Positions 17,701-58,700 of a DNA stretch of 64,000 nucleotides are shown one piece after another. The stretch comes from Dehalococcoidia bacterium. GTDB lineage: Bacteria > Chloroflexota > Dehalococcoidia > SHYD01. The notes under the pieces were generated by a model. That model made no database searches and had not been told where the DNA came from. It saw only the letters and a program-made list of their open reading frames with translations. A program made the translations under genes and the position numbers. The DNA lies in NCBI GenBank assembly GCA_965226775.1, contig CBDDEI010000002.1:2278930-2342929 (forward strand), in the 5' to 3' direction. The first letter of the stretch is position 1, and each line of letters starts with the position of its first letter.

Positions 17701-18998
17701 CACGGTGACGATCAACGTCACCACCACAACCACCGCCACTGCCACCGCTACCGCCACTGCCACTGCCACCGCCACAACCTCATCGGGGAGCAGGGGAGGA
17801 GGAGGAGGCCGCGGCCGCGCTACCCCAACGCCAACACCAACTCCGAGCCCAACGCCTACGGCGACACCAACCCCTACCGGACCGCAGTTCTCCGGCTTGA
17901 TTGCCGCTGAGCCCAGCGTGACCGCAACGGTGGTTCCTGAGGGCACTACCCTGGGCCTCAACGGCGGCGCAGACCTGCCAGGCGGCGTCTACGTGAACTT
18001 CCCGCCCACCGCAGTGGCCTTGCCGGTGCACGTGAGCGTCTCGGTGAGCAACGAAGCACCGAGCGACGTGGTTGCGCCCAGCGGCACCACCTCTGCTGCC
18101 GCTCACCATCGACATCACTCCGGAAACTCCCATCACCCTGGGCGAGCCGCTGACCATTGAAATCAACCCCACGCCGGAACAGCTGGAGGCCGCAGGCGGT
18201 GACCTGAACAACCTCTCCGTGGGCGTGGTGACCCCCAACGGCATTGTGGTGCTGCCCGCGCAGGTGATGCACGGCAGGCTGGTGGTGACCACCGACCGCC
18301 TCGCCCCCTTCGTCCTGTTAGCCATCACGGACACCGGCCCAGTTCTGACCCAGCCGCCTATGGGCGATGCCTCGTCCATGGGCCCGCTGCTGCAGTGGAC
18401 CCAACCGCCGCGCACTACCTGGTTCCAGGTGCAGGTGATCCCCTTCAATGAGGACGGCCCCGGCATCAACCTGGTTATCGGCGACCGCGCGCTGGTGCGC
18501 GCCGCGCAGTACCAGGTCCTGGGCCCCAACTTCGGCAGCGCCGACCCCAACTACGTGATGCTGCCCGGCATGACCTACCTCTGGCGGGTGCGCACTACCA
18601 CGGTGACCACGAACCCCACGGAGGACGACTGGAGCGCGTGGGCAGTGAGCAGCTTCAAGACACCGCCAGCCAGCAGCAGCACCATCACCCCGGTGGCGCC
18701 GCCGGCCTTTGCGGAGGTGAGCACGCTCACCCCGACGTTGACCTGGGCGAACTCCAACACCACCGTGTTCTACTACGAGGTGCAGGTTAGCAAGGACTAC
18801 GCGTTCGGGCCGAACGCCTTCCTCTACAGTGAGTACGTCCATGGCGGAGCCAGCACCCCGCCCAACAGCTACGTGGTGCCGGCAGCCTTCCCGCTAGAGG
18901 CAGGCGAGATCTACTACTGGCGCGTCCGGCCGCGGATTCAGGGCGACGGCGACCCGCTGCCGTGGAGCGCCACCTACGTGTTCCTAGCGCCGGGCTAG
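14761..18998 (+). CDS. Secreted multidomain protein: signal peptide, cadherin-like sandwich, unknown domain, phospho-His swivel-like motif, PEP-synthase/PPDK-type ATP-grasp domain, cadherin domain, shared C-terminal cassette; frameshifts ~17557 and ~18091
   Basis: Signal peptide MRNSIF...ARA-HS; TLTALSVT..LSPTFSSTVTDYTV (cadherin-like); TPLSHVNLRAVQDGVP (His at 16216); GVKAAN (Lys 16492); RSSTNNEDLPGFSGAGLYDS (16783); IEFKI...IKQARP; NQAPVF..ATDPDND cadherin. Pieces 17600-18160 and 18072-18998 continue in order. Confidence 0.8.
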
Positions 18999-19100
18999 GG
19001 CAGAGGCCGGCAGACGAGCGTTGAGTAAGGAGGGGGCCTGATGGCCTCCTCCTTTCCTTGGTAGCGTTTTTGATGGGCAGATAAAGTAAGGTGAACTGCT
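17822..19100 (+). repeat. Shared C-terminal cassette plus terminator, copy 1 of 3
   Basis: Near-identical by eye to 26256-27527 and 57892-59169, from the TPTPTPSPTPTATPTPTGPQFSG linker through the stop codon and ~100 bp of 3' non-coding sequence. Confidence 0.95.
19027..19060 (+). terminator. Hairpin/terminator after cassette copy 1
   Basis: AAGGAGGGGGCC-TGAT-GGCCTCCTCCTT followed by TCCTT. Confidence 0.7.
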
Positions 19101-19118
19101 GGTTAGCGGGCGAGCCTA

Positions 19119-19259
19119 TGTACCCCAGCCGCAGGCCAGAAACTACACAGTAATTGTCACGATGGCGGCCTATGTGCACACATCATGTATACCTAAGGGC
19201 TGTATCATGGACTATATATAATCTAGGGATATTATTTAGGGCCATACAGGTGGAGTGAA
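19119..19259 (+). promoter_or_regulatory. Conserved upstream region of the chaperone-protease operon, copy A
   Basis: Shares CAGCCGCAGGCCAGAAACTACACAGTAATTGTCACGATGGCGGCCTATG and CTAGGGATATTAYTTAGGGCCATACAGGTGGAGTGAA-ATG with 48766-48887. Confidence 0.6.
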
Positions 19260-20035
19260 ATGAGAAAGCTCATTGTCCTGCTGACCATAGTTGCCCTTGA
19301 ATCAAGCGTGATGACGGTCCTGGCCGGATGCGGATCGCCTACACCGACGGACCAGCCCGCTGCAGCGCCCACGGAGACCGCATCGCCACTCCTGAAACCC
19401 ACCGCAACCGTAGCTACTCCTCTCGTGGATGACTCCGTGTCTACACCAACTCCCGCGTCGTCTGCCAGCGACGGGATTGAATTCACGCCCGTCGACTCTT
19501 CGGAACGTCCAAGAAACAGGACCCTATAACGGTTGCTGATCAGGATTCTCCCCAGAAGGATGGCCCCGGCGCTACCGGCCCTGTCCAGGGTGACCCCTAC
19601 ACCTGGCAGGACGGCGACAGGACCATGACGGTGATGCTTCAGGCAGACCTGGTAGTCGAGAAAGACTCCGGCGGATTGCCTCGTGACGTCGTTTCAGCCA
19701 ACGAGGGTGGAACTAACGTTGTCAGGAGTGCGGATGCACAATCGAACAGTGCTACCCTGCCCGTCTTTCGCGCGGAGTCCGGCGCGCTGATGACCCTCCC
19801 CGGCGGCGTTCTGCTGGTGCTCAGCTCTGAATGGAGCCAGGCGGAAACGAACGCCTTTTTCTCCAACAATGGGATCAAGATGGACCGCGTGTCGGAGTTG
19901 GGCTACGTCGCTAACGGCTTCTTCGTTGAAACTGAACCAGGATTCCCCTCGCTGGACCTCGCCAACGCCCTGGCAGTGCAGGACGGTGTGGAAATCTCCA
20001 GCCCCAACTGGGGAAGAGACGCCACCCCGAAGTGA
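19260..20035 (+). CDS. Lipoprotein, putative stand-alone propeptide/external chaperone of the downstream S8 protease (copy A; frameshift ~19498)
   Basis: Lipobox LAGC, P/T-rich linker, C-terminal GGVLLVL...SPNWGRDATPK; the intact paralog at 48888-49664 defines the frame. Confidence 0.7.
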
Positions 20036-20114
20036 TTGTTGCCTGTGCATACCACCGGTTGTTGTGACCCACTGTTCCCGTGAACGCTAACGTCTCTTCA
20101 GCGTCATCTATCCC

Positions 20115-23100
20115 ATGACCAGGATGCTCAGTCCGGCCAGACTGCTGCCGGCGGCGGGATGTGCCCTGCTCTGCCTAGTGCTGGCCCTGAGCTACGCCAG
20201 CGCGCAGACTCCTCCTGCCGCGCCTACCACCGACTCTGTAACTTCTGGCGATACCTCACTTACCGTGGCCTGGACCGCTCCCGCCGGCGAGACCGGCATC
20301 ACGGCCTACGACGTGCGTCACATCGAGACCAGCGCGGATGAGACGATGGACTCCAACTGGATCATCAAGGACAACGCCTGGACATCCAGCGCGCTGCAAT
20401 ATACCATCACCGGCTTGACCAACGGCACGGAGTACGACGTGCAGGTACGCGCGGTAAACTCTCACGGAGACGGGACCTGGTCAGACATCAAGACCGGTAC
20501 GCCGGCACTCCCTGCTCCCATTATAGATTCCGTGCGTGCCGATGACCGAGCCGTGCTGGTTTCCTGGAGCGCACCCACCGGCATCACCACCGGAGTCTCG
20601 GCTTACGACGTGCGCTACATCGAGACCAGCGCTGATAAGACGATGGACTCCAACTGGACTGTGGAGGAGGACGCCTGGGAAGAGGGCGACGGCAGCCTGG
20701 CCTACGCCGTCACCGGCCTGACCAACGGCACGGAGTACGACGTGCAGGTGCGCGCGGTGGACGAAAAAGATGTCGACGGCGCCTGGTCGGCCACAACCAG
20801 CGCAACTCCCGCGGACCACGGCAACACCCAGGCAGCAGCCACTACCGTCTCTCCTGGCGCCAGAGTGTGGGGAGCCATTGACCCCGCCGACGATGAAGAC
20901 TACTTCAGCTTTAGTGTGTCAAGGACAGCCGATTACTGGATATATACTTTAGGCGACCTGGATACCGTGGGTGAGCTGCTGGACGGTGACGGCATGTCCA
21001 TCGACATCAGCGATAGAGGCTCCGTGCTGCCCAACCCGGACAACTTCTTCCTGTGGCAAAGACTCCAGTCCGGGACGTACTACATCAAGGTAACCGGCTA
21101 CGGATCTACTGACGAACCATATGTCCTTAGGATCAGGGAGTTTAGGGACACAACTTCAAGGAGCAACGCGGCCACTCTGAATCTCAACGGCTCCGCAAGC
21201 GCCACCATAGACCCGGAAGACGACGAAGACTACTTCAAGCTGGAGCTTTCCGAGACAACGGAAGTTGCCATTCGCGCCTCCGGGTACCCAGACACCGTTG
21301 GTGAGCTGCAAAGGAGCAACGGCACGGTAATTGCCTCCAACGATGACGGCTTTCTCTCTGGCGGCTGGACGAACTTTCTCATCCGGGAGAGCCTAAACGC
21401 CGGGGTGTACTACGTCAAGGTCAGCTCTTTCGCAAGTAGTTCCGATGGTCCATACACAGTATATGCTACGGCTATAACCGAGCCGGGCAGCGCCATCGCC
21501 GACGCTCAGCCGCTGACCCTCGGCGGTACCGCAGGCGGAATCATAGACCCGGCCGGCGACGAGGATTACTTCAGCCTGACCCTCGAAGAGACAACGTACG
21601 TGATAATCGGTGGAGCGGGCGAAGTCGTTAATATCAGCGGCGATCTGACCGATGAAAACGACCTCGCTGCCCCGGTAGACTCAGTTCACTTTAACCACTT
21701 ATTCTTCTTCCAGGGCAGATTGGACGCGGGCACATACTACTTGAAGGTGACGGGCAAGGACGCCACGGAAACAGGGCGTTACACCGTCAGGGCTATTGTG
21801 GAGAGCAGCTACACTTATTTTGTAAACCGCTGCTCCAACATCCCAACCAGCAGCAGCATCAACGACCCGCTCTACGGATGCCAGTGGCACCTGAAGAACA
21901 ATGACCAGTTCCGCAACAGTGGTGGGCATGACATACGCGTCGAGGAGGTATGGCCCACCTACACAGGCTCCGGCATCAACGTGGCAGTGGTGGACGATGG
22001 AATGCACTACTGGCACGAGGACCTGACCGGCAATGTCCTCACCTCCTTCAATCACAACTATGACCCCGACCTGACCGACATCTACCATCCATTCGAGGAC
22101 CACGGCACCGCGGTGGCCGGGCTCATCGCGGCGAAGGACAACAGCCTTGGCATGCGCGGCGTAGCCCCCGAGGCCAAGATATACGGTTACAATTATCTGG
22201 TGGTAGATACCGTGGCCAACGCGGCGGACGCAATGTCTCGCAACGCGGCGACCACGGCCATTTCCAACAACAGCTGGGGGCCTGGGGATTACGGTCGCCC
22301 GGAACCTGCCCCTGAGCTGTGGGAGACTGCGGTCAAGCATGGCGTCACCACCGGATACGACGGGAAAGGCGTCTTCTACGCGTGGGCTGCCGGCAACGGA
22401 GGAGACCGCGACGACTACTCCACTCTGGACGAGTTAGCGAACTTCTATGCCGTGACGGCAGTCTGCGCTGTCGGGCACGACGACATTAGAAGCGACTACT
22501 CGGAAGCAGGCGCAAACCTGTGGGTGTGCGGGCCGTCCAGCAGCGGGAGGGATGGCCAGCCCCGAATAGCCACCACCGATAACGGACACCGGTATAGGGG
22601 CAGTTTTGGCGGCACCAGCGCCGCCACTCCCATCGTATCCGGCGTCGTCGCGCTGGTGCGCGAGGCCAACAGCGCGTTGACGTGGCGGGACGTCAAGCTC
22701 ATCCTGGCGGCCTCCGCCCGCAAGAACGACCCAGATAACACCGGCTGGGTGGAAGGCGCTTTCAAGTACGGGTCGAGCACGGACCGCTACAACTTCAACC
22801 ACGAGTACGGCTTCGGCATGGTGGACGCCAAGGCGGCCACGGACCTGGCTCCGGGCTGGACCAACGTACGCGACTTGAGGGAAATCACCTCCGAATCCGG
22901 CGTCATCAACCTGCCAATCCCCGACTTCCCGTCATCCGGTACGCCTACCACCGTAACCACCAACCTGACCATCGACCCGTTTGTGGAGTTCGTCGAGTTT
23001 GTGGAGGTCAACGCCCACTTCTTCCACGCTAACTTCCGGGACCTGACCGTTGAGCTGGTCTCGCCCTCAGGGACCGTTTCAACGCTGTCCACTACCGCCC

Positions 23101-26100
23101 TTAGATTCGGGTCGTTGACCTACAAGTTCCGCTTTGGTTCGGCCCGACATCTGGGCGAGGACGCGGCCGGCGAGTGGACGTTGCGGATTAAAGACCTGGA
23201 AAGAGTTGATACAGGAGCTCTCAGGTCGTGGGGTCTCACCATCTACGGTCATGGCTTCGTTCCCGGCGAGCCTGAAATCGACGTTGTGACTCCGGGTGGA
23301 GGCACACTCGAAATTGACTGGAAAGCGCCGACCGACACAGGGGAGACTGCCATCACCTCCTACGACCTGCGCTATATCCGAGATGACGTCACCGACAGGA
23401 GCGATGACAACTGGTCTGTGGTGACGGGCGTGGGGACGCCGAGCAACCGGAGCTACACCATCACCGGACTGAGCGGCGGAGTTAAGTACGATTTCCAACT
23501 CCGTGCCCACAACGATTCCGGACACGGCCCCTGGTCCCTAGGGGAAGCTGACGAGCCCACCACGGTCAAGCCGGCCGCACCGGCCATTACCGACGTCACT
23601 CGCAGCGATAGGACACTGGCGGTCGTCTGGACGGCCCCCGCTGACACGGGTGGCGGGGTCACAGCCTACGACGTGCAGTACATCGAGACCAGCGAAGACG
23701 AGACGATGGAAGCCAACTGGACGGTACGGGACAACGCCTGGAGAAGCGGTGACCTTAGATATATCATCTCCAATCTCACAAACGCGACGGAGTACGACGT
23801 ACAGGTGCGGGCCGTCAACTCCGCAGGGGATGGAGCATGGTCTGGCACAGAGACCGGCACGCCGCTGCCGGATGACATACCCATAACGTTGCAGTGGGAA
23901 GAGACCTCTATTGAAGTGGCCGAGAACGCCGGGAGCATAGTCCTGAGGGCAGTAGTCACAACCACACTGGACGCGCCGCCGGAGGCTGACTTCACCTTCG
24001 ATGTGACACTGACCACCACCGATACCGGCACGACCCAAGGCGACGACTACACGGCTCCGCCTTCGTCCGCAACCTTTGTCGCGAGCGACTTCAGCCAGAC
24101 CGACGTGAACGGCCAGCAGCGCTACCGCGCCACCAGGGATTTCACCGTGGCTATCATAGACGACACCGCGGATGAATCGAATGAATCATTCAGGGTAAGG
24201 CTGGCCTACCTGACTCCCGGCCTCACGCATCTCCAGGGAGGCCCCTCTACCGCAGTCGTCACAATCCAGGACAACGAACACGTTCCAGTTACTATCAGCT
24301 GGGAACAGCCGGATCTAACGGTCAGTGAGAACACCGGAAACGCCACCCTGCGCGCTTACGCCATCACCACGGTGGACAAGCGGCCTGAAGACGGGTTCGC
24401 CTTCGACGCCTCCATCTATACGTCTGACGGCAGCGCGACCCAGCCCGGCGACTATACGCGGGTGGACGATACCGTCACTTTCAGCCGGACCGACTTCAGC
24501 CGGGTAACCATCAACGGCGAACGACGCTATCGCGCCGCAAAGCAAGTGCCTGTGCCCATTCAGGATGACACATCCGACGAAGACGAGGAGGACTTCACGG
24601 CAACCATTGAGTACGCGAATCCCGGCCCGCTTCACCTGCAGGGCGGACCAGCCGTGATGACTGTAAAGATCACCGACAACGACTTCGTACCCGTCACCAT
24701 CAGCTGGGAACAGCCGTTGGTGAGCGTCGACGAGGATGCGACAACGGTCACCCTGCAGGCCAGGGCTACCACCACGTCGGACAAAATGCCGGAGAGCGGT
24801 TTCACCGTCGCGCTGTCCGCGGCGACGGCCGGCGACACCGCCACCCGAGGCTCGGACTATCGGAGGCTGACCAGCAACTTCCGCTTCAGCCAGGGCGACT
24901 TCACGCGCGTAGAGGTGGGGGGCCAATTCCGCTTCCAGGCAACCAAGGACATCAGCGTCTCCATCATCAATGACACCGCCGACGAGCCGGACGAGGACTT
25001 CACGGTAACCCTGAGCTACTCCAACCCAAGCCTCCCTCATCTACAGGGAGGTCCCGCCACTACGACGGTGACCATTACTGATAACGACCACGTGCCCGTG
25101 GTCCTGAGTTGGGAGCAGGCGGCGGTGACGGCCGAAGAAGCCACGAGTCCTGGGAGCACGCGCCCCGTCTCCCTGCGCGCCGTCGCCGTCACCACCAAGG
25201 ACAAGATGCCGGAGAGCGGCTTCACCTTCGACGTAACCGTAGCCACCGCAGATGACAGCGCAACCCAACCCGCCGACTACCTGCGGTTGTCCGACACGGC
25301 GACCTTCAACCGGAGTGATTTCAGCCTGGCGACCGTCAGCGGCCAGCGGCGTTACCGCGCGGTGAAGACCTTCACGGTATCCGTCACTCACGACACCCTC
25401 CAGGAACCCAACGAGACCTTCACTGTGACCCTGGCCTACGCCGACTCCAGTCTGCCTCACCTGCTAGGGGGAAGGGACACGGCGACGGCGACGGTGACCA
25501 TCACCGACGACATATCATCTACTGTGGACTTGAGTACAACGGTATCCGGCTCGCCCTTCCGTGTCTCCCGAGGCGAGGAGTTGACCTACGACTACACAGT
25601 CAGTAACTCCGGCCCGGCTGCATCGACAAACACGGTTGTGACGAGCACGCTCGACCGCGGCGTGAGCTTCGTGTCGGCTACTCCCGCTGACAAGTGCGCC
25701 CACTCGGGAGGAGCGACCGGCGGCGTGGTCACCTGTAGGTTCGATGCCCTGAATTCGGGCGCAAGCGAGGCAGGCGAGATCGTGGTGCAGGTCGGGCCAG
25801 CGGCATCCGCGGACATCGCCATAACCTCCGTAGCCACTGGCAACGAGCTGGACCGCAGTCCGGGGGACAACACGGCCACCGCGTTCACCGAACTCCTTGC
25901 CCCGCCCGAGCAGGTGACGAATCTGTCACCTGCTCGGAGCGGCGTCGATTTCATCGAACTATCGTGGGCCACGCCCGCAGACAATGGCAGCCCCATCACC
26001 CGTTACGAGCTGGAACGCAAGGAGGCCGGCGAGAGCTATGTCCCCATCAATCCCGGACCTAGCGCCGCGGCTACAACGTACCTGGACAGCCAGGTGCCGG

Positions 26101-27432
26101 CTGGAACGACCTACACCTACCAGTTGCGCGCCGTCAACGCCGACGGCGACGCCGAATGGTCCAACGAGGCGACCGCAACCGCTAGGGAAACCCGGCCTCC
26201 ACCTACTCCTGGGCCGCGCGGCGGCGGGGGAGGAGGTGGGGGTCGCTCTGCCCAAACGCCAACACCAACGCCTACACCGAGCCCAACGCCTACGGCGACA
26301 CCAACGCCTACCGGACCGCAGTTCTCCGGCCAGATTGCCGCGGAGCCCAGCGTGACTGCAACGGTGGTTCCTGAGGGCACCACCCTCGGCCTTAACGGCG
26401 GTGGAGACCTGCCAGGCGGCGTCTACGTGAACTTCCCGCCCACCGCAGTGGCCTTGCCGGTGCACGTGAGCGTCTCGGTGAGCAACGAAGCACCGAGCGA
26501 CGTGACTGCGCCAAGCGGCACTACCCTGCTGCCCTTAACCATCAACATCACCCCGGAAACGCCCCTCACCCTGGGCGAGCCGCTGACCATTGAGATAAAC
26601 CCCACGCCGGAACAGCTGGAGGCCGCAGGCGGTGACCTGAACAACCTCTCCGTGGGCGTGGTGACCCCCAACGGCATTGTGGTGCTGCCCGCGCAGGTGA
26701 TGCACGGCAGGCTGGTGGTGACCATCGACCACCTCTCCACCTTCGTCCTGTTGCCATCACCGACCCCGGCCCGTTCTGACGCAGCCGCCGATGGGCGATG
26801 CCTCGTCCATGGGGCCGCTGCTGCAGTGGACCCAACCGCCGCGCACTACCTGGTTCCAGGTGCAGGTGATCCCCTTCAATGAGGACGGCCCCGGCATCAA
26901 CCTGGTTATCGGCGACGGCGCGCAAGTGCGCCGCGCAGTACCAGGTCCTGGGCCCCAACTTCGGCAGCGCTGACCCCAATTACGTGATGCTGCCCGATAT
27001 GACCTACCTCTGGCGGGTGCGCACTACCACGGTGCTGACGAACCCCACGGAGGCAGACTGGAGCGCGTGGGCAGTGAGCAGCTTCAAGACGCCGCCGGCC
27101 AGCAGCAGCACCATCACCCCGGTGGCGCCGCCGGCCTTTGGGAGGTGAGCACGCTCACCCCAACGTTGACCTGGGCGAACTCCAACACCGCCGTGTTCTA
27201 CTACGAGGTGCAGGTAAGCAAGGACTACGCGTTCGGGCCAAACGCCTTCCTATATAGTGAGTACGTGCATGGCGGAGCCAGCACCCCGCCCAACAGCTAC
27301 GTGGTGCCGGAAGCCTTCCCGCTAGAGGCAGGCGAGATCTACTACTGGCGGGTGCGGCCGCGGATTCAGGGCGACGGCGACCCGCTGCCGTGGAGCGCCA
27401 CCTACGTGTTCCTAGCGCCGCCGGGCCAGTAG
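20115..27432 (+). CDS. Giant secreted kexin-like S8 protease A: signal peptide, 2 FN3, 3 PPC-like, S8, P-domain, 2 FN3, 4 Calx-beta-like, DUF11, FN3, shared cassette; small indels at 26750-27145
   Basis: Catalytic D (VVDDG, 21993), H (DHGTAVAG, 22101), oxyanion N (AAGNG, 22395), S (GTSAATP, 22617); HEYGFGMVDA; P-domain FVEVN..DLTVELVSPSG..GEWTLRI..WGLTIYG; TEYDVQVRAV FN3 repeats; VTITDND Calx-beta ends. Confidence 0.9.
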
Positions 27433-27527
27433 GCCAGAAGACGAGCGCTGAGTAAGGAGGGGGTCATCAGACCCCCTCCTTTCCTTGGTAGCGTTTTTGA
27501 TGGGCAGATAAAGTAAGGTGAACTGCT
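26256..27527 (+). repeat. Shared C-terminal cassette plus terminator, copy 2 of 3
   Basis: Direct match to copies 1 and 3; contains IDHLSTFVLL at 26724-26753. Confidence 0.95.
27454..27490 (+). terminator. Hairpin/terminator after cassette copy 2
   Basis: AAGGAGGGGGTC-ATCA-GACCCCCTCCTT. Confidence 0.7.
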
Positions 27528-27730
27528 CATTAGCGGGCGGGGAGGCTTGTCCAAATACATTATCTCCTCAGTTGTCTTCTGAATAGTGCGCCGCGCCCAG
27601 GCCGCAGCCAATGTGCGCGAGTGGTTCCGCGATAGAGCCCACGCCGTGCACGTCGCAGCGGGACCTGCTGGTAGTTGGCGATGCTGGAAGTAAGCTGCTA
27701 ATGTGTCTAGCAATCTCGAGGGGGTGAGCT

Positions 27731-29671
27731 GTGGGACGTCGGAGCGAAGTATCCAACTCTACCTGGGCATCTGTGGCGGCGCTGCTGCTGGGCGCGCTGA
27801 CGGTGATGTTTGGCCTCCAGCTTATGCGGATGCTCTTCGTGGGGATGGCAGTCTACCTGACTCAGGTCCAGGACATCAGCTCGATTTTGGTGGGCGTCAT
27901 GGGTCTGGCCGTGTTCCTGTGCGGATTGCTGGAGCCCCTCGTGCGCCGAGTTCTCGGGTTCCGGAATGCCTTACCAATAGTCGTGGGCAGTCTGTCGCTG
28001 GTTTGGCTGGCCGAAAAGCTCGTCTTATCTCTTCCCGTGGACCTCGGCCTCTCCATCGCCGGTACGGTGCTGTTCCTGTGGTCCTTGCCGCTCCTGTTTC
28101 GGTCGCTCCGAACGCCGGGAGGCCACGGCAGCGCCGCTCATGCCGTGATCGCCTTCATGGTGGGCATTTCTGCCGATACCGCGGTCAAGGGCATCTTCGG
28201 CACCATCGACCTCTCGTGGGTGCAAGGAGTTGCGGGATACAGCGTCGTTTTTGGTTTGGTTGCCGCCCAAGGGTTCCTTCTGTGGCAATTCGCATCGCAT
28301 AGGAGCCAAGAGCAGGAACAAGGGCCCGCTGCCTCAGCCATGTCCTATTTGGCCTTCGGTCCGGCGCTGGCATTGCAGTTCCTACTGTTCCAGAACGTTG
28401 CCCAACAGACCGTGCTCATCGGCTGGCCGCAACCCGCGGTGTACGCCTGGATTCTTACAGCCAACCTCATTGGGGTTGCGATCGCTGTGGAGCTGACGAG
28501 ATGGGGCAGACACCCATCCTGGCCAGTACTGGCGCTGATCGGAGGGCTGCTGATCGCGATGGTAGCAGTCGATCAGTCTGGCTTGGCAGCGGCCCTAGTA
28601 GTGCTAGCCGGCCAGGTGGTCATTGCCGTCTCCCTGGTGTCCGTCGTCAAGGCGGCACGAGAACCCATCGTCGAACATTCGAACCGCGGTATTTCTATTT
28701 GGATGGGCGTTGGCATGGTAGTTATGCTGATGTTGCTCTTCATCTATTACGCAAGCTACGATACCAACGTCTTGGTGCCAAAGGAGGCCGTGCGTCCCCT
28801 AGCCGCACTGTTGATTGGTCTGGCGGCGCTTTGGGCCAGTTTAGCGAGCCACACTGTTGGAGCGCCGGTAACCAGGGCGGCCAGCATCCCTGCACTGCTC
28901 CTGCTGTTACTCCCATTGGTCTCTCTGGCGATGTGGAAGGACGTGCAGCCGGCTCCGGGCGCAGGATTCCCTGTTAAGGTTATGTCCTACAACCTCCACC
29001 AGGGATTCGACGTCTATGGAAGCCACGGAATGGAGAACCTGGCCAGGGTCATAGAGGCCGAAGACCCGGACATCATCGCGTTGCAAGAGGTATCAAGAGG
29101 CTGGGTCGTCAACGGTTCTGTCGATATGCTGGTATGGCTCTCACAGCGTCTCGAAATGAACTACGCGTGGGGTCCGGCAGCAGATTCGGTGTGGGGCAAC
29201 GCAGTCCTCAGCAAACGCCCGATTACCGGGTTCCAGAACCATGAGATGCCCAACAACGGCGTACTTCGCCTCGACCGGGCGTTCCTGGTAGCGGAGGTCG
29301 ACGTGGGTGGCGGAGAGGCGCTTGAGGTAGTAGCTACTCACTTCCACAACGACGAGGACGACTCAGCGATCAGGGTGCCGCAGGCGCGGGCGGTACTGGA
29401 GGCTACCGGCAGCGACCGGGCTACCGTCTTGATTGGAGACTTCAACGCCCACCCCGATCACCCGGAGATGCTGCTGATTGCCGGCGCCGGCCTCAACGAT
29501 ACCTTCGTCGCTTCTGGAGCAACGGGGGACGGCTTTACCTTTCCCACCGACGCTCCCTGGCGCCGCATTGATTACATTTGGGCCAGCCCCAACTTGAAGG
29601 CGCGAGACTTTTCTATCCCCAACAGCCTAGCCTCGGATCACTTCGCCGTGGCGGTAACGCTCTACCGGTAA
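27731..29671 (+). CDS. Multi-TM protein with C-terminal endonuclease/exonuclease/phosphatase domain (CWH43/PGAP2IP-like architecture)
   Basis: About 400 aa of consecutive hydrophobic helices, then MSYNLHQGF, LQEV, GDFNAHP, IDYIW and SDHFAV EEP motifs. Confidence 0.85.
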   Translation: MGRRSEVSNSTWASVAALLLGALTVMFGLQLMRMLFVGMAVYLTQVQDISSILVGVMGLAVFLCGLLEPLVRRVLGFRNALPIVVGSLSLVWLAEKLVLSLPVDLGLSIAGTVLFLWSLPLLFRSLRTPGGHGSAAHAVIAFMVGISADTAVKGIFGTIDLSWVQGVAGYSVVFGLVAAQGFLLWQFASHRSQEQEQGPAASAMSYLAFGPALALQFLLFQNVAQQTVLIGWPQPAVYAWILTANLIGVAIAVELTRWGRHPSWPVLALIGGLLIAMVAVDQSGLAAALVVLAGQVVIAVSLVSVVKAAREPIVEHSNRGISIWMGVGMVVMLMLLFIYYASYDTNVLVPKEAVRPLAALLIGLAALWASLASHTVGAPVTRAASIPALLLLLLPLVSLAMWKDVQPAPGAGFPVKVMSYNLHQGFDVYGSHGMENLARVIEAEDPDIIALQEVSRGWVVNGSVDMLVWLSQRLEMNYAWGPAADSVWGNAVLSKRPITGFQNHEMPNNGVLRLDRAFLVAEVDVGGGEALEVVATHFHNDEDDSAIRVPQARAVLEATGSDRATVLIGDFNAHPDHPEMLLIAGAGLNDTFVASGATGDGFTFPTDAPWRRIDYIWASPNLKARDFSIPNSLASDHFAVAVTLYR

Positions 29672-29855
29672 AGCTGCGCAATCTTGCGCCGGCTTGGCGC
29701 CGAGCAGACTTCGATGCTTTTCCCCAGCAGCCCGTAGTTTCTCTCGCAGTAGATCGGGATGTTAGGCGATTGATCTACTAAGGGGGTCGCCCCAAAATGC
29801 CCAAGTGCTGGGTAAAAGAGGTACTGGGCTCGACATACGAGGGGCTTTCTCTAAG

Positions 29856-47840: not shown

Positions 47841-47852
47841 GTCATATCTCCT

Positions 47853-48185
47853 TCATCCAATGTCCGGCTGGAAGGCGGCAATCTCACGAGGAGCGGAGCC
47901 TACGTGCAAGTTACCAGGCGATTGCACCCCTACAGACGTAGCATTTATGTATCCTACTATGCTGCCAACCGCAGCGGAAGTGCGGTTCTTGGGCCTTCTG
48001 ATGAAGGCCGGCAGTTCTTCCGTGTCGCCAAGAACGGTTATCGCTCCATATCGTGAGCCAGTAAGAGAGCGGGCGCTGTCCACGATCCCCTGAAGCAAGT
48101 TGTCCAAGTCGAGGCCCTCGCTGAGACGGGACAGCCGGTCTATCTGAGCCTGCATCTCCAGGTCCCGTGCATCGTCTCGCTTCAT
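47853..48185 (-). pseudogene. N-terminal fragment 1 of the hybrid-kinase family
   Basis: Starts MKRDDARDLEMQA, identical to the 63969 start, with similar upstream DNA; homology is lost after GAITVLGD. Confidence 0.75.
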
Positions 48186-48526
48186 ATCTCCGCCTTGATT
48201 GGGATTGCGGAAGACCCGGGGTCCCCTCCACAGCGACCCAGGCTCCATGAAGCCGGATTCGACGTCTTGGGGCAAATTAAACAATCTCGACCAAAACTTA
48301 CATATATTTCATATAAAATAGCTGATTATCTCACAGTAACCTTACACACACCCTGTAGAATAGAGCGTAATAGGGAGGTGTTAGGCCAATCCCTGCGCTA
48401 GTCGGACTGAGATAGCAGCCGGTACCAAGGATGGGGGCAGGGCACATCTCGACGGCGGACACGTCGGGTATCGCCTACGGAGACAGGCTGGACAACGCCA
48501 CGTTAACCCCTTGTGTTCTTGAGGGG

Positions 48527-48733
48527 TCATCCCCGAGACGATGAAGGCGGCAGCTCTTCAGTGTCGCAAAGGACGATTATCTCTCCATATCGTGAACCGG
48601 TAAGAGAGCGGGCGCTGTCCACGATCCCCTGAAGCAAGTTGTCCAAGTCGAGGCCCTCACTGATGCGCCGGCCGGCCTCGCTCAAGCAGGACAGACGGCC
48701 GACCCGTGTTCGCCCCGGTCGGGAATCCGCCAC
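48527..48733 (-). pseudogene. N-terminal fragment 2 of the hybrid-kinase family
   Basis: RLSCLSEAGRRISEGLDLDNLLQGIVDSARSLTGSRYG; about 90 bp near-identical to 48040-48125. Confidence 0.7.
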
Positions 48734-48765
48734 GGATTGGGCGTCATCGCCTAGACTGGGCCGAT

Positions 48766-48887
48766 TGTACCAGCCGCAGGCCAGAAACTACACAGTAATT
48801 GTCACGATGGCGGCCTATGGATACACGTTATGTATACATAGGGGCTGTATCTAGGGATATTACTTAGGGCCATACAGGTGGAGTGAA
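48766..48887 (+). promoter_or_regulatory. Conserved upstream region of the chaperone-protease operon, copy B
   Basis: Matches 19119-19259 except for a short indel in an AT-rich segment. Confidence 0.6.
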
Positions 48888-49664
48888 ATGAGAAAGCTCG
48901 TTATCCTGCTGACCACAGTTGCCCTTGTACCAAGCGTGATGACGGTCCTGGCCGGATGCGGATCGTCTACACCGACGGACCAGCCCGCTGCAGCGCCCAC
49001 GGAGACCACATCCCCTCTCCTGAAACCCACCGCCACCGTAGCTACTCCTCTCGTGGGTGACTCCGTGTCAACACCAACTCCCGCGTCGTCTGTTAGCGAC
49101 GGGATTGAATTTGTGCCCGTCAACTCCTTCGGATCTTCCACGAAACAGGAACCTATAACGGTTGCTGATCAGGATTCTCCCCAGAAGCGCGGCCCCGGCG
49201 CCGACGGCCCTGTCCAGGGTGACCCCTACACCTGGCAGGACGGCGACAGGGCCATGACAGTGCTGCTTCAGACAGACCTGGTAGTCGAGAGAGGCGCCGA
49301 CGGACTGCCTCGTGACGTCGTTTCAGCCAACGAGGATGGAACTAACGTTGTCAGGAGTGCGGAAGCACAATCGAAGGGTGATACCCTGCCCGTCTTTCGC
49401 TCGGAGTCCCGCGCGCTGATGACCCTCCCCGGCGGCGTTCTGCTGGTGCTTAGCTCTGAATGGAGCCAGGCGGAAACAAACGCCTTTTTCTCCAACAACG
49501 GGATCAAGATGGACCGCGTGTCGGAGTTGGGCTTCGTCGCTAACGGCTTCTTCGTTGAAACTGAACCAGGGTTCCCCTCGCTAGACCTCGCCAACGCCCT
49601 GGCAGTGCAGGACGGGGTGGAAATCTCCAGCCCCAACTGGGAAAAAGACGCCACCCCGAAGTGA
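48888..49664 (+). CDS. Lipoprotein, putative stand-alone propeptide/external chaperone (copy B, intact)
   Basis: 258 aa; LAGC lipobox; ends QDGVEISSPNWEKDATPK; 79 bp upstream of protease B. Confidence 0.75.
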   Translation: MRKLVILLTTVALVPSVMTVLAGCGSSTPTDQPAAAPTETTSPLLKPTATVATPLVGDSVSTPTPASSVSDGIEFVPVNSFGSSTKQEPITVADQDSPQKRGPGADGPVQGDPYTWQDGDRAMTVLLQTDLVVERGADGLPRDVVSANEDGTNVVRSAEAQSKGDTLPVFRSESRALMTLPGGVLLVLSSEWSQAETNAFFSNNGIKMDRVSELGFVANGFFVETEPGFPSLDLANALAVQDGVEISSPNWEKDATPK

Positions 49665-49743
49665 TTGTTGCCTGTGCATACCACGGGTTGTTGTGACCCA
49701 CTGTTCCCGTGAACGCTAACGTCTCTTCAGCGTCATCTATCCC

Positions 49744-52700
49744 ATGACCAGGATAACCAGGATGCTTAGTCCGGCCAGACTGCTGCCGGCGGCGGGATGT
49801 GCCCTGCTCTGCGTAGTGCTGGCCCTGGGCTACGCCAGCGCGCAGACTCCTCCTGTCGCGCCTACCATCGACTCTGTAACCTCAGGCGATACCTCACTTA
49901 CCGTGGCCTGGACCGCTCCCGCCGGCGAGACCGGCATCACGGCCTACGACGTGCGTCACATCGAGACCAGCGAGGATGAGACAGATGACGCCAATTGGAT
50001 CATCGAGGACAACGCTTGGACATCCGGCGCGCTGCAATACACCATCACTAGCCTGACCAACGGCACGGAGTACGACGTGCAGGTGCGGGCGGTAAACTCC
50101 CACGGAGACGGGACCTGGTCCGCAACTGAGGTCGGGACGCCGGCCTTGCCCGCTCCCGCCGTCGACTCCGTTCGCGCCGACGACCTGGCCGTGCTGGTTT
50201 CCTGGAGCGCTCCCACCGGCATCACCACCGGAGTTGCCGCTTACGACGTGCGCTACATTGAGACCAGCGATGATGAGACGATGGACTCCAACTGGACTGT
50301 GGAGGAGGGCGCCTGGAAAGAGGGCAGTGGCAGCTTGGCCTACGCCGTCACTGGCCTGACCAACGGCACGGAGTACGACGTGCAGGTGCGCGCGGTGGAC
50401 GAAGACAATGTCGACGGCGCCTGGGCGGCCACAACCAGCGCAACTCCCGCGGACCACGGCGACACCCAGGCAGCGGCCACCACTATCTTCTCTCCGGACG
50501 CCAGTGTGTGGGGAGCCATTGACCCCGCCGACGATGAAGACTACTTCAGCTTTAGCGTGTCAAGCACAGCCGATTACTGGATATATACGTTAGGCGACCT
50601 GGATACCGTGGGTGAGCTGCTGGACAGCGGCGGCATGTCCATCAAGAGCAATGATAGAGGCGGCGCGCTGCCCAACCCGGACAACTTCTTCCTGTGGCAA
50701 AAACTACAATCCGGGACGTACTACATCAAGGTAACCGGCTACGGACCTACTGACGAACCGTATATCCTCAGGATCAGGGAGTTCCCGGACACCACGTCTA
50801 GGAGCAACGCCGCAACTCTGAATCTCAACGGCTCCGCAATCGCCACCATAGACCCGAAAGACGACGAAGACTACTTCAAGCTGGAGCTTTCCGAGACAAC
50901 GGAAGTTGCCATTCGCACCTCCGGGTTCCCTGACACCATAGGTGAGCTGCAAGACAGCAGCGGCACAGTAATTGCCTCCAACGACGACGGCTATCTTCCG
51001 GGCGGTATAAGGGATTTTCTCATTCGGGAAAGCCTCCAACAGGGAATCTACTACGTTAAGGTCAGCTCTTACGACGAAGATTCCGATGGGGCTTATTCAG
51101 TGTACGCTGCGTCCATAACGGAGCCGGGCAGCTCCATCACCGACGCCCAGCCACTGACCCTCGGCGGTCTGGCGGGCGGAATCATAGACCCGGCCGGCGA
51201 CGAGGACTACTTCAGCCTTACCCTCGAAGAGACAACTCACGTGATAATCGGTGGAGTGAGCACTGCCATTAATATCAGCGGCTATCTGACCGATGAAAAC
51301 GACCTAGCGGCCACGGTAGAATCAGGTCACTTAGACAACTATTTTAGCTTCGAAGGCAGATTGGATGCGGGCACATACTACTTGAAGGTGACGGGCAAGG
51401 ATGGCACAGAGACAGGACGTTACACCGTGATAGCTATCGTGGAGCCCGATCTAACCTATTTAGAAAACCGCTGCCACAACATTCCCAGGAGTGCAGGCAT
51501 AAAAGACCCGCTCTACGGATGCCAGTGGCACCTGAAGAACAATGACCAGTTCCGCAACAGTGGTGGGCATGACATACGCGTCGAGGAGGTGTGGCCCACC
51601 TACAAAGGCTCCGGCATCAACGTGGCGGTGGTGGACGCTGGTATGCACTTCCAGCATGAGGACCTGACTGACAACGTTCTCACCTCTTTCAATCACAACT
51701 ATCACCCCGACCTAACCGACATCTACCACCCCTTAGCGAACCACGGTACCGCCGTGGCTGGCCTCATCGCGGCGAAGGACAACAGCCTCGGCATGCGCGG
51801 CGTAGCCCCCAAGGCCTCTATCTACGGCTACAACGTACTGGTGGTTAGACCAAGCGCTGCCAACAAAGTGGACGCCATGTCGCGTAACGCGGCGACTACG
51901 GCCATTTCCAACAACAGTTGGGGCCCTGGAGACGACGGCCTGCCGCAACCTGCCAGTGCACTGTGGGAGACGGCAGTCAAAGATGGAGTCACGACCGGGT
52001 ATGGCGGAAAAGGCGTTTTCTACGCGTGGGCTGCTGGCAATGGCCATGGAGAATTCTTCCACGACTACTCCACTCTGGACGAGTTATCGAACTTCTATGC
52101 CGTCACTGCCGTCTGCGCCGTCGGCCACGACGACATAAGAAGCGACTACTCGGAAGCAGGCGCAAACCTGTGGGTGTGCGGGCCATCTAGCAGCGGGAGG
52201 GAGGGCCAACCCGAAATAGCCACCACCGACAACGGCCATCGCTATAGGGGCAGTTTTGGCGGTACCAGCGCCGCCACCCCCATAGTCTCCGGCGTGGTAG
52301 CGCTGATTCGAGAAGCAAATAACGCGTTGACGTGGCGGGACGTCAAGCTCATCCTGGCGGCCTCCGCCCGCAAGAACGACCCGGATAATACCGGCTGGGA
52401 GCAAGGAGCATTCAAATACGGGTCGACCACGAACCGCTACAACTTCAACCATGAGTACGGCTTCGGCATGGTGGACGCCAAGGCAGCCGTGGACCTGGCT
52501 CTGGGCTGGACCAACGTCCCCGACTTGAGGGAAATCACCTCTGAGTCAGGCGTCATCGACCTACTAATCCCGGATGCGCCGCGGTACGGTACGCCTGACA
52601 CGGTTACAACCAGCCTGACCGTAGACCCTTATGTAGAGTTCGGTGAGTTTGTGGAGGTCAACACCCACTTCGACCACCCTTACTTCCGGGACCTGACCGT

Positions 52701-55700
52701 TGAGCTGGTCTCGCCCTCAGGGGCCGTTTCAACGCTGTCCCCGACTGCAGCACGAGTGCCGGGGGCGCTGACCACCGAGTTTCGCTTTGGTTCGGCCCGC
52801 CACCTGGGCGAGGACGCGGCCGGCGAGTGGACGCTGCGGATCAAGGACGCTGTGACGATAGATAGCGGGACCCTCAAGTCGTGGGGTCTCACCATTTACG
52901 GTCATGGCTTCATTCCCGGCGCGCCCGGAATCGACACTGTGACTGCGGGAGGAGGCACACTCGAGGTTAACTGGAACGCGCCGACCGACACAGGGGAGAC
53001 GGCCATCACCTCCTACGACCTGCGCTACATTCGCGAAGATGCTACGGACAAGAGCGATGACAACTGGTCTGTGGTGACGGGCGTGGAGACGCCGAGCAAC
53101 CGGAGCTACACCATCACCGGACTGAGGGGCGGGGTGCAGTACGAAATCCAACTGCGGGCCCACAACGGTTCCGGACACGGCCCCTGGTCCCAAGCGGAAG
53201 CTTACGAGCCCACCACGGTCGCGCCGGCCGCGCCGGCCATAACCTCCATCACACGCGGCGACACGACTCTGGCTGTCGTCTGGACGGCCCCCGCTGACAC
53301 GGGTGGCGGGGTCATCACAGCCTACGACGTGCGCTACATTGAGACCAGCGAAGACGAGACAGATGACGCCAACTGGACGGTGCGGGACAACGCCAAGAGA
53401 AGAGGCTTCCTGCGGTACACCGTCACTGGCCTCACCAATGCCACGGAGTACGACGTACAGGTGCGGGCCGTTAACTCCGCGGGGGATGGAGCCTGGTCTG
53501 ACACAGAGACCGGCACTCCGCGGGCGGAAGCTATACCCATAACGTTGCAGTGGGAAGAGACCTCTTTTGAAGTGGCCGAGGACGCCGGGAGCGTCGTCTT
53601 GAGGGCAGTCTTCACAACCACACTTGACGCGCCGCCGGAGGTTGACTTTACTTTCGATGTGACACTGACCACCACCGATAGCGGCACAACCCAAGACGAC
53701 GACTACACGGCTCCGCCTTCGTCCGCGACTTTTGTCGCGAGCGACTTCAGCCAGACCGACGTGAACGGCCAGCAGCGATATCGCGCAACCAGGGATTTCA
53801 ACGTAGCCATCATAGACGACACAGCGGATGAATCGAACGAAGCCTTCAACGTGACCCTGGCCTACCTGACTCCCGACCTCACGCATCTCCAGGGAGGCCC
53901 CTCCACGGCAGTCGTCACAATCACCGACAACGACTTCGTACCCGTCACCCTCAGCTGGGAACAGGCGGCTATAACGGTCGGTGAGCACGTCGGAACCGCC
54001 ACACTGCACGCCTACGCCATCACCACTAAGGACAAGCGGCCCGAAGTCGGGTTCTCCTTCGACGCCTCTATCTCTACCTCGAACGGCAGCGCGGCCCAGC
54101 CCGGCGACTATACGCGGGTGGACGATACCGTCACGTTCAGCCGGAACGACTTCAGCCGGGTGACCATCAACGGCCAACCCCGCTATCGCGCCGCTAAGCA
54201 AGTGCCCGTGACCATTCAGGATGACACGTCCGACGAAGGCGAGGAGGACTTCACCGTAACCATTGAGTACGCAACTCCCGCCCCGCCGCACCTGCAGGGC
54301 GGAGCAGCCACGATGCGCGTAACGATCACCGACAACGACTTCGTACCCGTCACCCTCAGCTGGAACCAGGCATCCGTGAGCGTCGACGAGAATGCGCTAA
54401 CGGTCACCCTGCAGGCCCGGGCTACCACCACCTCGGACAAAATGCCGGAGAGCGGTTTCACCGTCGCCCTGTCCGCGACAACGGCCGGCAACACCGCCAC
54501 CCAAGGCTCGGACTATCGGAGGCTGAACAGCAGCTTCAGCTTCAGCCAGGGCGACTTCACGCGCACAAACGTTGGGGGTCGATTCCGCTTCCAGGCAACC
54601 CGGGACATCAGCGTCTCCATCATCAACGACACCGTCGACGAGCCAGACGAGGACTTCACGGTAATCCTGAACTACTCCGACCCAAGCCTCCCCCATCTAC
54701 AGGGAGGTCCCTCCACGGCAGTCGTCACAATCCAGGACAACGAACACGTACCCGTCACCCTCAGCTGGGAACAGGCGGCTATAACGGTCGGTGAGCACGC
54801 CGGAAGCGCCACACCGCGCGCCTACGCCATCACCACTGTGGACAAGCGGCCGGAGAGCGGCTTCTCCTTCGACGCCTCCATCTCTACCTCGAACGGCAGC
54901 GCGGCCCAGCCCGGCGACTATACGCGGGTGGACGTTACCGTCACGTTCAGCCGGAACGACTTCAGCCGGGTGACCATCAACGGCCAACCCCGCTATCGCG
55001 CCGCTAAGCAAGTGCCAGTGACCATTCAGGATGACACAGCAGACGAAGGCGAGGAGGACTTCACCGTAACCATTGAGTACGCGAACCCCGGCCCAATTCA
55101 CCTGCAGGGCGGAGCAGCCACGATGCGCGTAACGATCACCGACAACGACTTCGTACCCGTCACCCTCAGCTGGGAACAGCCGGACGTGAGCGTCGACGAG
55201 AATGCGCTAACGGTCACCCTGCAGGCCCGGGCTACCACCACCTCGGACAAAATGCCGGAGAGCGGTTTCACCGTCGCCCTGTCCGCGACAACGGCCGGCA
55301 ACACCGCCACTCAAGGCTCGGACTATCGGAGGCTGAACAGCAGCTTCAGCTTCAGCCAGGACGACTTCACGCGCACAAACGTTGGGGGTCGATTCCGCTT
55401 CCAGGCAACCCGGGACATCAGCGTCTCCATCATCAACGACACCGTCGACGAGCCGGACGAGGACTTCACGGTAATCCTGAACTACTCCGGCCCAAGCCTC
55501 CCCCATCTCCAGGGAGGCCCCTCTACGGCAGTCGTCACAATCCAGGACAACGACTTCGTAGCCGTCACCCTCAGCTGGGAACAGCCGGACATAACGGTCG
55601 CTGAGCACGTCGGAAGCGCCGCACTCCGTGCCTACGCCATCACCACTGTGGACAAGCGGCCGGAGAGCGGGTTCACCTTCGACGCCTCCATCTCTACCTC

Positions 55701-58700
55701 GAACGGCAGCGCGACCCAGCCCGGCGACTATACGCAGGTGGACGATACCGTCACGTTCAGCCGGAACGACTTCAGCCAGACCGACGTGAACGGCCAGCAG
55801 CCGCGCAACCAGGGACCGTAGCCATCATAGACGACACCGCGGATGAATCGAACGAAGCCTTCAAACTGGCCTACCTGACTCCCGGCCTCACGCATCTCCA
55901 GGGAGGCCCCTCTACCGCAGTCGTCACAAAAGACAACGAACACGTGCTCAGCTGGGAACACTCGGACGTAACGGTTGAGAACGCCGGAAGCGACTGCGCG
56001 CCTACGCCGTCACCACCGTGGACAAGCGGCCTGAAGACGGGTTCTCCTTCGACGCCTCCATCTCTAGTCTAACGGCAGCGCGGCCCAGCCCGGCGACTAT
56101 ACGCAGGTGGACACCGTCACGTTCAGCCGGAACGACTTCAGCCGGGTGACCATCAACGGCCAACCCCGCTATCGCGCCGCTAAGCAAGTGCCTGTGCCCA
56201 TTCAGGATGACACACGACTGCGAGGAGGCGTAACCATTGAGTACGCGAATCCCAGGCCCGCTTCATGCAGGGCGGACCAGCCAAGCGTAACGATCACCGA
56301 CAACGACTTCGTACCCGTCACCCTCAGCTGGGAACAGCCGTTGGTGAGCGTCGACGAGGATGCGCTAACGGTCACCCTGCAGGCCCGGGCTACCACCACC
56401 TCGGACAAAATGCCGGAGAGCGGTTTCACCGTCCCCCTGTCCGCGACGACGGCCGGCAACACCGCAACCGAAGGCTCAGACTATCGGAGGCTGACCAGCA
56501 GCTTCAGCTTCCGCCAGGGCGACTTCACGCGCACAGACGTGGGGGGCGGCCAATTCCGCTTCCAGGCAACCCGGGACATCAGCGTCTCCATCATCAATGA
56601 CACCGCCGACGAGCCGGACGAGGGCTTCACGGTAATCCTGAACTACTCCGACCCAAGCCTCCCCCATCTACAGGGAGGTCCCGACACTGCGACGGTGACC
56701 ATCGCCGACAACGACCACGTGCCCGTGGTCCTGAGTTGGGAGCAGGCGGCGGAGACGGCCGAAGAAGCCACCAGCCCTGGGAGCACTAACCCCGTCTCCC
56801 TGAGCGCCGTCGCCATCACCACTAAGGACAAGAGGCCGGAGAGCGGCTTCTCCTTCGACGTAACCGTAGCCACCGCAGACGGCAGCGCAACCCAACCCGC
56901 CGACTACCTGCGGTTGTCCGACACGGAGACCTTCGACCGGAGTGATTTCAGCCCGGCGACCGTCAGCGGCCAGCGACGTTACCGCGCGGTGAAGACCTTC
57001 ACGGTACGCGTAACTCACGACACCGTCCAGGAACCCAACGAGACCTTCACGGTGACCCTGGCCTACGCCGACCCCAGTCTGCCGCACCTGCAAGGTGGAA
57101 GGGACACGGCGACGGTGACCATCACCGACGACATATCATCTATCGTGGACTTGAGTACAACGGTATCCGGCTCGCCCTTCCGTGTCTCCCGAGGCGATGA
57201 GTTGACCTACGACTACACCGTCACGAACTCCGGCCCGGCTGTATCGACAAACACGGTTGTGAGGAGCACGCTCGACCGGGGCGTGAGCTTCGTGTCGGCT
57301 ACTCCCGCTGACAAGTGCGCCCACTCGGGAGGAGCAACCGGCGGCGTGGTCGCCTGTACGTTCGATACCCTGGATGCGAGTGCAAACGAGGCCGGCGAGA
57401 TCTTGGTGCGGATCGGGCCAGCGGCATCCGCGGACATCGCCATTACCTCCATAGCCACTAGCAACGAGCTCGACCGCAGTCCGGGGGACAACACGGCCAC
57501 CGAGTTCACCGAACTCTTTGCCCCGCCCGAGCAGGTGACGAATCTGTCACCCATCCGGAGCAGCGTCGATTTCATCGAACTGTCGTGGGCCACGCCCGCA
57601 GACAATGGCAGCCCCATCACCCGTTACGAGCTGGAACGCAAGGAGGCCGGCGAGAGCTATGCCCCCATCAATCCCGGACCTAGCGCCGCGGCTACAACGT
57701 ACCTGGACAGCCAGGTGTCGGCTGGAACGACCTACACCTACCAGTTGCGCGCCGTCAACGCCGACGGCGACGCCGAATGGTCCAACGAGGCGACCGCAAC
57801 CGCTGGGGGAACCACGCCTACGGCGACGGCGACACCGACGCCGCGCAGCGGCGGGGGAGGCGGCGGCGGCGGCAGCAGCAGCTCTGCCCAAACGCCAACC
57901 CCAACCCCAACACCGAGCCCAACGCCTACGGCGACCCCAACGCCTACCGGACCGCAGTTCTCCGGCGTGATTGCCGCGGAGCCCAGCGTGACTGCAACGG
58001 TGGTTCCCGAGGGCACTACCCTGGGCCTTAACGGCGGTGGAGACCTGCCAGGCGGCGTCTACGTGAACTTCCCGCCCACCGCAGTGGCCTTGCCGGTGCA
58101 CGTGAGCGTCTCGGTGAGCAACGAAGCACCGAGCGACGTGACAGCGCCCAGCGGCACTACCCTGCTGCCGCTTGACCATCGACATCATCCCGGAAACGCC
58201 CCTCACCCTGGGCGAGCCGCTGACTATTGAGATAAACCCCACGCCGGAACAGCTGGAGGGCCGTACGCGGTAACCTGAACAACCTCGCCGTGGGCGTGGT
58301 GACTCCCCAATGGCATTGTGGTGCTGCCCGCGCAGGTGCTGCACGGCAGGCTGGTGGTGACCATCGACCACCTCTCCACCTTCGTCCTGTTGGCCATCAC
58401 CGACCCCGGCCCGATCCTGACCCAGCCGCCTATGGGCGATGCCTCGTCCATGGGGCCGCTGCTTAAGTGGACGCAGCCGCCGCGCACTACCTGGTTCCAG
58501 GTGCAGGTGATCCCCTTCAATGAGGACGGCCCCGGCATCAACCTGGTTATCGGCGATGGCGCGCTGGTGCGCGCCGCGCAGTACCAGGTCCTGGGCCCCA
58601 ACTTCGGCAGCGCTGACCCCAACTACGTGATGCTGCCCGACATGACCTACCTCTGGCGGGTGCGCACTACCACGGTGACCACGAACCCCACGGAGGACGA

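Follow-up and report, generated by a model that had tools for sequence, protein, structure and literature searches.

A C-terminal ZU5/GAIN_B-like hinge cassette with intact and nucleophile-less motifs in exported giant proteins of a Dehalococcoidia bacterium

The ZU5, GPS and Nup98 autopeptidase domains were unified by Zhang et al. in 2012 (PMC3482391), who also predicted bacterial ZU5 autopeptidases in toxins and in large surface proteins. Bacterial hinges of this GAIN/ZU5-like kind were shown in 2026 to function, mainly in Firmicutes and with sortase or SLH anchors. In these MAIN domains the bond between the hydrophobic residue and the Ser of an H-X-S motif (HF|S) was cut experimentally, an S-to-A change abolished the cut and the fragments were docked; in MAIN proteins such as B. 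subtilis YfkN the signal peptide is followed by the ectodomain, the MAIN domain and the anchor, and the preprint's set comprises 15,000 proteins (Brogan and Rudner, bioRxiv 10.64898/2026.05.12.724683). Here we describe a related C-terminal cassette in a stretch of 64,000 nucleotides from a Dehalococcoidia bacterium (assembly GCA_965226775.1, contig CBDDEI010000002.1, positions 2,278,930 to 2,342,929), hereafter the window, whose own numbering is used below. Three window genes end in the cassette: gene A, which encodes a PPDK_N (ATP-grasp-like) protein, and genes B and C, which encode S8 proteases. Our main proposal, to which we give a probability of about 0.6, is that the cassette consists of a Gly/Pro-Thr linker, a 150-aa MAIN-type ZU5/GAIN_B-like sandwich and two FN3-like domains, that it would cut itself in its H-L-S form and stay uncut in its R-x-A-P form, and that these two states are not tied to the cargo.

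Like the MAIN proteins, the cassette proteins have a Sec signal, a large ectodomain (leucine-rich repeats (LRR), cadherin, fn3, hydrolases), a sandwich that ends in an H-X-S/T beta-turn and a C-terminal module; the cut is predicted before the Ser, with the last strand docked, and S-to-A is the known inactivating change in MAIN. Unlike them, they occur in Dehalococcoidia, which are absent from the preprint text (10.64898/2026.05.12.724683), they carry a lineage-specific tandem FN3-like pair instead of a sortase, SLH or cell-wall-binding anchor, and they include natural, presumably dead R-x-A-P alleles next to live ones within a single family of paralogs. To the ZU5 autopeptidases (PIDD, UNC5CL and the NLRP1/CARD8 FIIND) the cassette is linked by its fold (TM-score of ~0.6 to ankyrin ZU5, with FIIND also matched) and by an H-hydrophobic-S motif that precedes a long strand where the domain ends C-terminally, with a weak Pfam ZU5 signal in a few family members, but the cassette proteins are extracellular and have no UPA or death domain after it. 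In bacterial toxins the ZU5 domain lies N-terminal to RHS repeats, whereas the cassette domain lies near the C-terminus. [quoted passage not shown] The cassette differs from them in having no GAIN_A domain, no GPS Cys or Trp, no seven- or eleven-transmembrane (7TM/11TM) region and no tethered-agonist signalling. It is a lineage-specific addition to a recently validated class, with presumably live and dead alleles shuffled among its paralogs. The family extends the MAIN-type class to the Dehalococcoidia (Chloroflexota), and its cassettes, nearly identical, found on the same types of cargo and differing in whether they have the nucleophile, amount to a natural experiment on what cleavage is for.

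An earlier note on this DNA had read IDHLSTFVLL in both proteases and TDRLAPFVLL in the PPDK_N protein, and the sequence matches these readings exactly:

18291-18320, plus strand: hinge motif of gene A, TDRLAPFVLL, with Arg (18297-18299) replacing His and Ala (18303-18305) replacing the Ser nucleophile
26724-26753, plus strand: hinge motif of gene B, IDHLSTFVLL, with His at 26730-26732 and Ser at 26736-26738
58363-58392, plus strand: hinge motif of gene C, IDHLSTFVLL, with His at 58369-58371 and Ser at 58375-58377

By analogy with the known autopeptidases, the scissile bond of gene B would be the one between Leu and Ser. The motif codons of genes B and C are identical (ATC GAC CAC CTC TCC ACC TTC GTC CTG TTG), and those of gene A (ACC GAC CGC CTC GCC CCC TTC GTC CTG TTA) differ from them at 18292, 18298, 18303 and 18306 by four nonsynonymous changes out of four (I/T, H/R, S/A and T/P) within 15 nt. 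The note had pointed to these four substitutions in an otherwise highly conserved cassette; its count is correct. The shared cassette and 3' flank (~1.2 kb) are 89-96% identical among the three genes, and 57 of the 1128 coding positions of the cassette are different between A and B (26 nonsynonymous, 31 synonymous). When these differences were shuffled, ~73% of the shuffles contained a 15-nt window with at least four of them, and the pairwise clustering is not significant (P about 0.7-0.9). Four nonsynonymous differences out of four have a P of ~0.04, and the 8-codon motif window is the densest spot of the cassette for shared amino-acid replacements (five). The motif changes are exceptional by location, not by pairwise clustering, in that they strike those polar residues that the family conserves best.

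To place the motif in a fold, we used an AlphaFold2 (AF2) model of the 376-aa cassette of the intact paralog c7, built from a 21-sequence alignment, with a predicted local distance difference test score (pLDDT) of 89.5 and a predicted TM-score (pTM) of 0.82. In the model a beta-sandwich (residues 1-151) precedes two FN3-like domains. The residues D141-H-L-S144 form a four-residue turn (DSSP on the model, pLDDT ~94) between strands 135-140 and 145-151, the last two of the sandwich, so in the model the motif does lie in a beta-turn. Apart from one short helix the 150-aa domain is built of beta-strands, and it has no Cys; the pattern H-hydrophobic-S/T before the last strand is present in B and C (DHLS) and absent in A (DRLA). 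The isolated domain of gene B (26307-26753) was modelled with a pLDDT of 90.7, and a fold search with it against the PDB returned ZU5-superfamily structures (ZU5, GAIN, FIIND) as all of its top 19 matches. Ankyrin ZU5 domains were matched with TM-scores of 0.53-0.63 (prob 1.00), the GAIN domain of CD97 (9mqr_A) with a TMq of 0.54 (prob 1.00), and the NLRP1 FIIND (7crw, 7crv) within the top 19; the CARD8 FIIND (7jn7_B) stood at rank 33. A search with the whole 376-aa cassette returned tandem FN3 structures only, the ZU5 signal appearing only with the isolated domain. At the sequence level, ZU5 (PF00791) was the only Pfam family with recurrent matches, which came from 3 of the 22 members (best E 6.6e-4). 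Pfam GPS and GAIN gave no match up to an E of 10, a hidden Markov model (HMM) of the domain gave no meaningful match to PDB sequences, and an NCBIfam search of the cassette returned nothing. Fold, position and conservation support, on this model, a structural reading of the motif as a site of the GPS/ZU5 type. The GAIN/GPS label given to it earlier fits as ZU5/GAIN_B-like and does not fit in the strict sense, which would include GAIN_A, Cys pairs and a 7TM region.

A HMMER search of 1.8 billion representative proteins yielded only 37 relatives, all of which carry this tri-domain cassette at the C-terminus, behind various cargos, and a scan of genome contigs placed the family in metagenome-assembled genomes (MAGs) of Dehalococcoidia/Chloroflexota from freshwater and groundwater. 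Among 14 homologs at 27-43% identity, His142 is kept in 13, Ser/Thr144 in 14 and Phe/Tyr146 in 14, which makes His142 the best-conserved polar residue of the domain. Intermediates that have lost the His and kept the Ser were found as well: RLSR (c10), RLSK (P0014) and QLST (L025). The possibility that the R-x-A variant is an error can be set aside, since R-x-A-P is present in seven paralogs, in independent assemblies (P0007, P0009-P0011, P0017) and in a sister species. In the distant homolog P0036 (1516 aa) an extra upstream motif (...CSTTHLTTFGML) lies around residue 1110, which suggests two ZU5-like hinges in one protein.

These data lead us to propose the following mechanism. The 376-aa cassette ends ~16 Sec-exported giant paralogs (S8/kexin-like proteases, PPDK_N-type enzymes and LRR/cadherin adhesins), and the ancestral last beta-turn would have read D-H-[L/F]-[S/T]-x-F. 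If the domain works as GAIN, PIDD, Nup98 and the tested bacterial MAIN domains do, an N-O acyl shift would take place: the Ser hydroxyl, activated by the His, would attack the carbonyl of the Leu, and the chain would be cut between Leu and Ser. The strand with the new N-terminus, STFVLLA, would stay docked in the sandwich and the ectodomain would be held non-covalently, from where it could come off under force or unfolding. To our knowledge, the fragments stay docked after cleavage in all known relatives. Copies with R-[L/I]-A-P, in which both nucleophile and base are missing, would remain one covalent chain. We assign the two states in this way because the protein order is that of MAIN proteins and the motif lies in an equivalent turn.

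Next, we compared motif state and cargo over the paralogs. The 2.42-Mb genome holds ~24 loci with the FN3-like pair, ~16 of which also have the ZU5-like domain; these ~16 cassettes comprise 7 HLST, 7 R[I/L]AP (c5, with an LRR cargo, reads RLAP), 1 RLSR and 1 whose motif is lost at the contig end. In the source genome they are distributed as follows:

S8 protease cargo: H-L-S in B, C and c7; R-x-A-P in none; other states in none
PPDK_N cargo: H-L-S in c9 (intact, 1976 aa); R-x-A-P in A, c4 and c6; other states in none
LRR/cadherin cargo: H-L-S in c8, c14 and c15; R-x-A-P in c2, c3 and c5; RLSR in c10

The S8 ortholog of the sister genome OZ244809.1 (86% identity over the catalytic region) carries TTDRLAPFVLV in a single open frame of 2448 aa (L020/L072). 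The same genome has a PPDK_N protein with RLAP and the LRR protein with QLST (L025); the R-x-A-P state occurs at L020 and L024, and intact open reading frames (ORFs) with RLAP measure 2448 aa and at least 1372 aa. The PPDK_N domain lies behind a Sec signal peptide and on a cadherin stalk in four paralogs (A, at 14761-17910, c4, c6 and c9), which is an odd, extracellular place for an ATP-dependent fold. In c8 (C2:964267-966513, minus strand; LRR/cadherin) the FN3-like pair is repeated three times in tandem after the HLS hinge. Contig C2 begins and ends within the family (C2:1-29000 and C2:2343000-2364919), with c16 cut at ...NFPPT and c1 starting mid-gene; an array of ~12 family genes spans this junction and probably caused the assembly break.

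To follow the history of the R-x-A-P state, we tested the informative sites of the cassette against it and found 65 of 119 to be four-gamete incompatible with the motif state. Only when the tree is built from the flanks (+/-100 nt) do the R-x-A-P copies group together; the whole-cassette tree is uninformative on their monophyly because the cassette is recombinant. The four-gamete conflicts, together with the clustering in the flanks only, argue for a single origin, after which the state spread through duplication and gene conversion. On the sequence comparison, this points to R-[L/I]-A-P being a derived allele that arose once, before the split of the sister species, and that would have been passed between cassettes by these two processes, and for that reason it would not be tied to cargo type.

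The earlier note had read the motif difference as a cargo-specific release switch, in which proteases with a live hinge can be shed and the kinase-like cargo with a dead hinge stays tethered. The three window genes fit this rule, and over three genomes a tendency in its direction exists (S8 proteases, 5 HLS and 1 RLAP; PPDK_N, 4 R-x-A-P and 1 HLS). The rule nevertheless fails in both directions, since c9 has HLS on a PPDK_N protein and the S8 ortholog of OZ244809.1 has RLAP, and LRR cargos occur in both states (3 HLS, 3 R-x-A-P and 1 RLSR). Recent duplication of whole genes accounts for the tendency itself, with one set of close paralogs in B, C and c7 and another in A, c4 and c6, and the mosaic nature of the cassette also speaks against the rule. 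The switch, which was the original attraction of the finding, does not hold, and we give it hardly any credence. A different role for the two states would be that of a maintained two-allele system, in which live and dead hinges are exchanged between cargo genes by gene conversion and any surface protease, enzyme or adhesin can toggle between force-releasable and permanently tethered, a cassette-level phase variation of shedding; we consider this improbable. A more speculative extension, in which the Arg in place of the His would open the hinge to cleavage in trans by the kexin-like S8 proteases encoded alongside, is unlikely because of the Asp at P2.

Several observations weigh against a self-cutting hinge. 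The strongest structural matches are ankyrin ZU5 domains, which do not cleave, the Foldseek E of ~2e-3 is modest, and the domain of the window genes themselves has no Pfam ZU5 match. ADGRB2/BAI2 has HLS and is not cleaved, so H-X-S is insufficient for cleavage (PMC13062082), and in Nup98 a change of His to Ala or Gln lowers cleavage only slightly (PMC3210808). The earlier statement that self-cleavage uses exactly this His and nucleophile is therefore too absolute for the His. No recognised cell-surface anchor (sortase signal, SLH or cell-wall-binding domain) was found after the domain, and the FN3-like pair as an anchor is conjecture. Finally, all three window genes and all 7 R-x-A-P genes of the source genome are frameshifted, for which reason some copies may be pseudogenes. 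The fold matches and BAI2 favour a purely structural motif at which neither version is cut, as in ankyrin/UNC5 ZU5 and BAI2 GAIN, with H-L-S and R-x-A-P as tolerated variants of a tight turn. The same can be said of R-x-A-P in intact ORFs of the sister genome, whose persistence indicates that at least some members can do without cleavage. However, at 27-43% identity the His and the Ser/Thr are far better conserved than their neighbours, which a turn alone would not require, the loss of the His is coupled with that of the Ser, and nearly all bacterial MAIN domains tested with the same motif and architecture cleave. We hold a purely structural motif to be possible, though doubtful. The frameshifts would also agree with the R-x-A-P copies, perhaps all three window genes, being decaying pseudogenes whose motif changed under relaxed selection, and in gene B deletions of 1 and 2 nt begin right after the motif. 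Against this, RLAP is found in the intact ORFs of OZ244809.1 and in the called proteins P0007 and P0011, HLS copies are frameshifted equally often (B, C, c14, c15), the shared cassette polymorphisms are mostly synonymous (89, vs 41 nonsynonymous), and the indels occur only in genes with several copies, as would be expected of consensus errors in repeats. R-x-A-P as a mark of pseudogenes was largely rejected on account of the intact sister ORFs, and decay as the general explanation is very unlikely.

The FN3-like pair of the cassette ends in ...YVFLAPG, directly before the stop codon, and in Pfam it has only weak matches to Ig_Rha78A_N; sequence inspection, Pfam and NCBIfam revealed no transmembrane segment, LPXTG, SLH or known sorting signal in it. 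It may be a new type of anchor. Many relatives have the pair without the ZU5-like domain, and in this form it ends many proteins, often after a Pro/Thr/Ser linker or a beta-propeller (C2: 89111, 224660, 355920, 588447, 630873, 1733960, 1769920, 1771450; L036-L068). The pair resembles a C-terminal module for sorting or retention that is spread throughout the Dehalococcoidia lineage and that databases do not annotate; present on ~24 proteins of the genome, it is a candidate new surface-retention or sorting module. Homologs with the pair also lie on contigs binned to unrelated phyla, L055 (a Hydrogenedentota MAG) and L057 (an Aenigmatarchaeota MAG), which could reflect horizontal transfer or a binning error.

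The three window genes are laid out as follows, with the indel positions taken from the DNA alignment:

14761-17910, plus strand: first ORF piece of gene A, with signal peptide, cadherin-like domain and PPDK_N (PEP-utilising, ATP-grasp-type; Pfam E=2e-26); frame lost at ~17560
17873-18320, plus strand: ZU5-fold domain of gene A, broken by a 1-nt insertion at 18092
18321-18998, plus strand: linker, tandem FN3-like C-terminal pair and stop of gene A
20115-26882, plus strand: ORF of gene B, with signal peptide, fn3, PPC, S8 subtilase with P-domain, fn3, four Calx-beta, DUF11, fn3, Gly/PT linker and ZU5-fold domain
26307-26753, plus strand: ZU5-fold domain of gene B, in frame (the domain modelled above)
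26754-27432, plus strand: FN3-like pair of gene B, out of frame through 1-nt deletions at ~26753, ~26774 and ~27142 and a 2-nt deletion at ~26927
49744-58230, plus strand: gene C, which codes for the second S8 protease and is split into two ORF pieces (49744-55821 and 56107-58230); its Calx-beta array is expanded
57943-58392, plus strand: ZU5-fold domain of gene C, with three 1-nt insertions at ~58170, ~58258 and ~58304
58393-59070, plus strand: linker, tandem FN3-like pair and stop of gene C

None of the three genes (0/3) is a continuous ORF in the assembly, gene C having an additional break between 55821 and 56107. The first deletion of gene B lies directly 3' of the motif and, as assembled, the gene ends 43 codons on without the FN3 pair. 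Single-copy genes of the window look intact and the 1-2-nt indels are confined to multi-copy genes, which makes consensus errors in repeats plausible. By inspection, A and B begin with signal peptides (MRNSIFTSRVAALALFAVVGFFAALAPP and MTRMLSPARLLPAAGCALLCLVLALSYASAQ, respectively).

By Pfam, genes B and C have the same cargo domains, namely fn3, PPC, S8 subtilase with P-domain, Calx-beta repeats, DUF11 and fn3. The Calx-beta modules are tandem repeats of 405/810 nt (24000-25500 and 53800-57100), with a larger array in C than in B. A small conserved gene lies 5' of each S8 protease gene (19625-20035 and 48888-49664), as well as 5' of c7, and its product ends in ...SSPNWG(R/K)(D/E)(A/S)TPK. The repeat unit runs past the stop codons (18999-19100, 27430-27530 and 59071-59170) into a conserved GC-rich hairpin (AAGGAGGGGGCC...GGCCTCCTCCTT), a T-run and ~40 further conserved bases, so that the duplicated or converted unit also takes in the terminator region.

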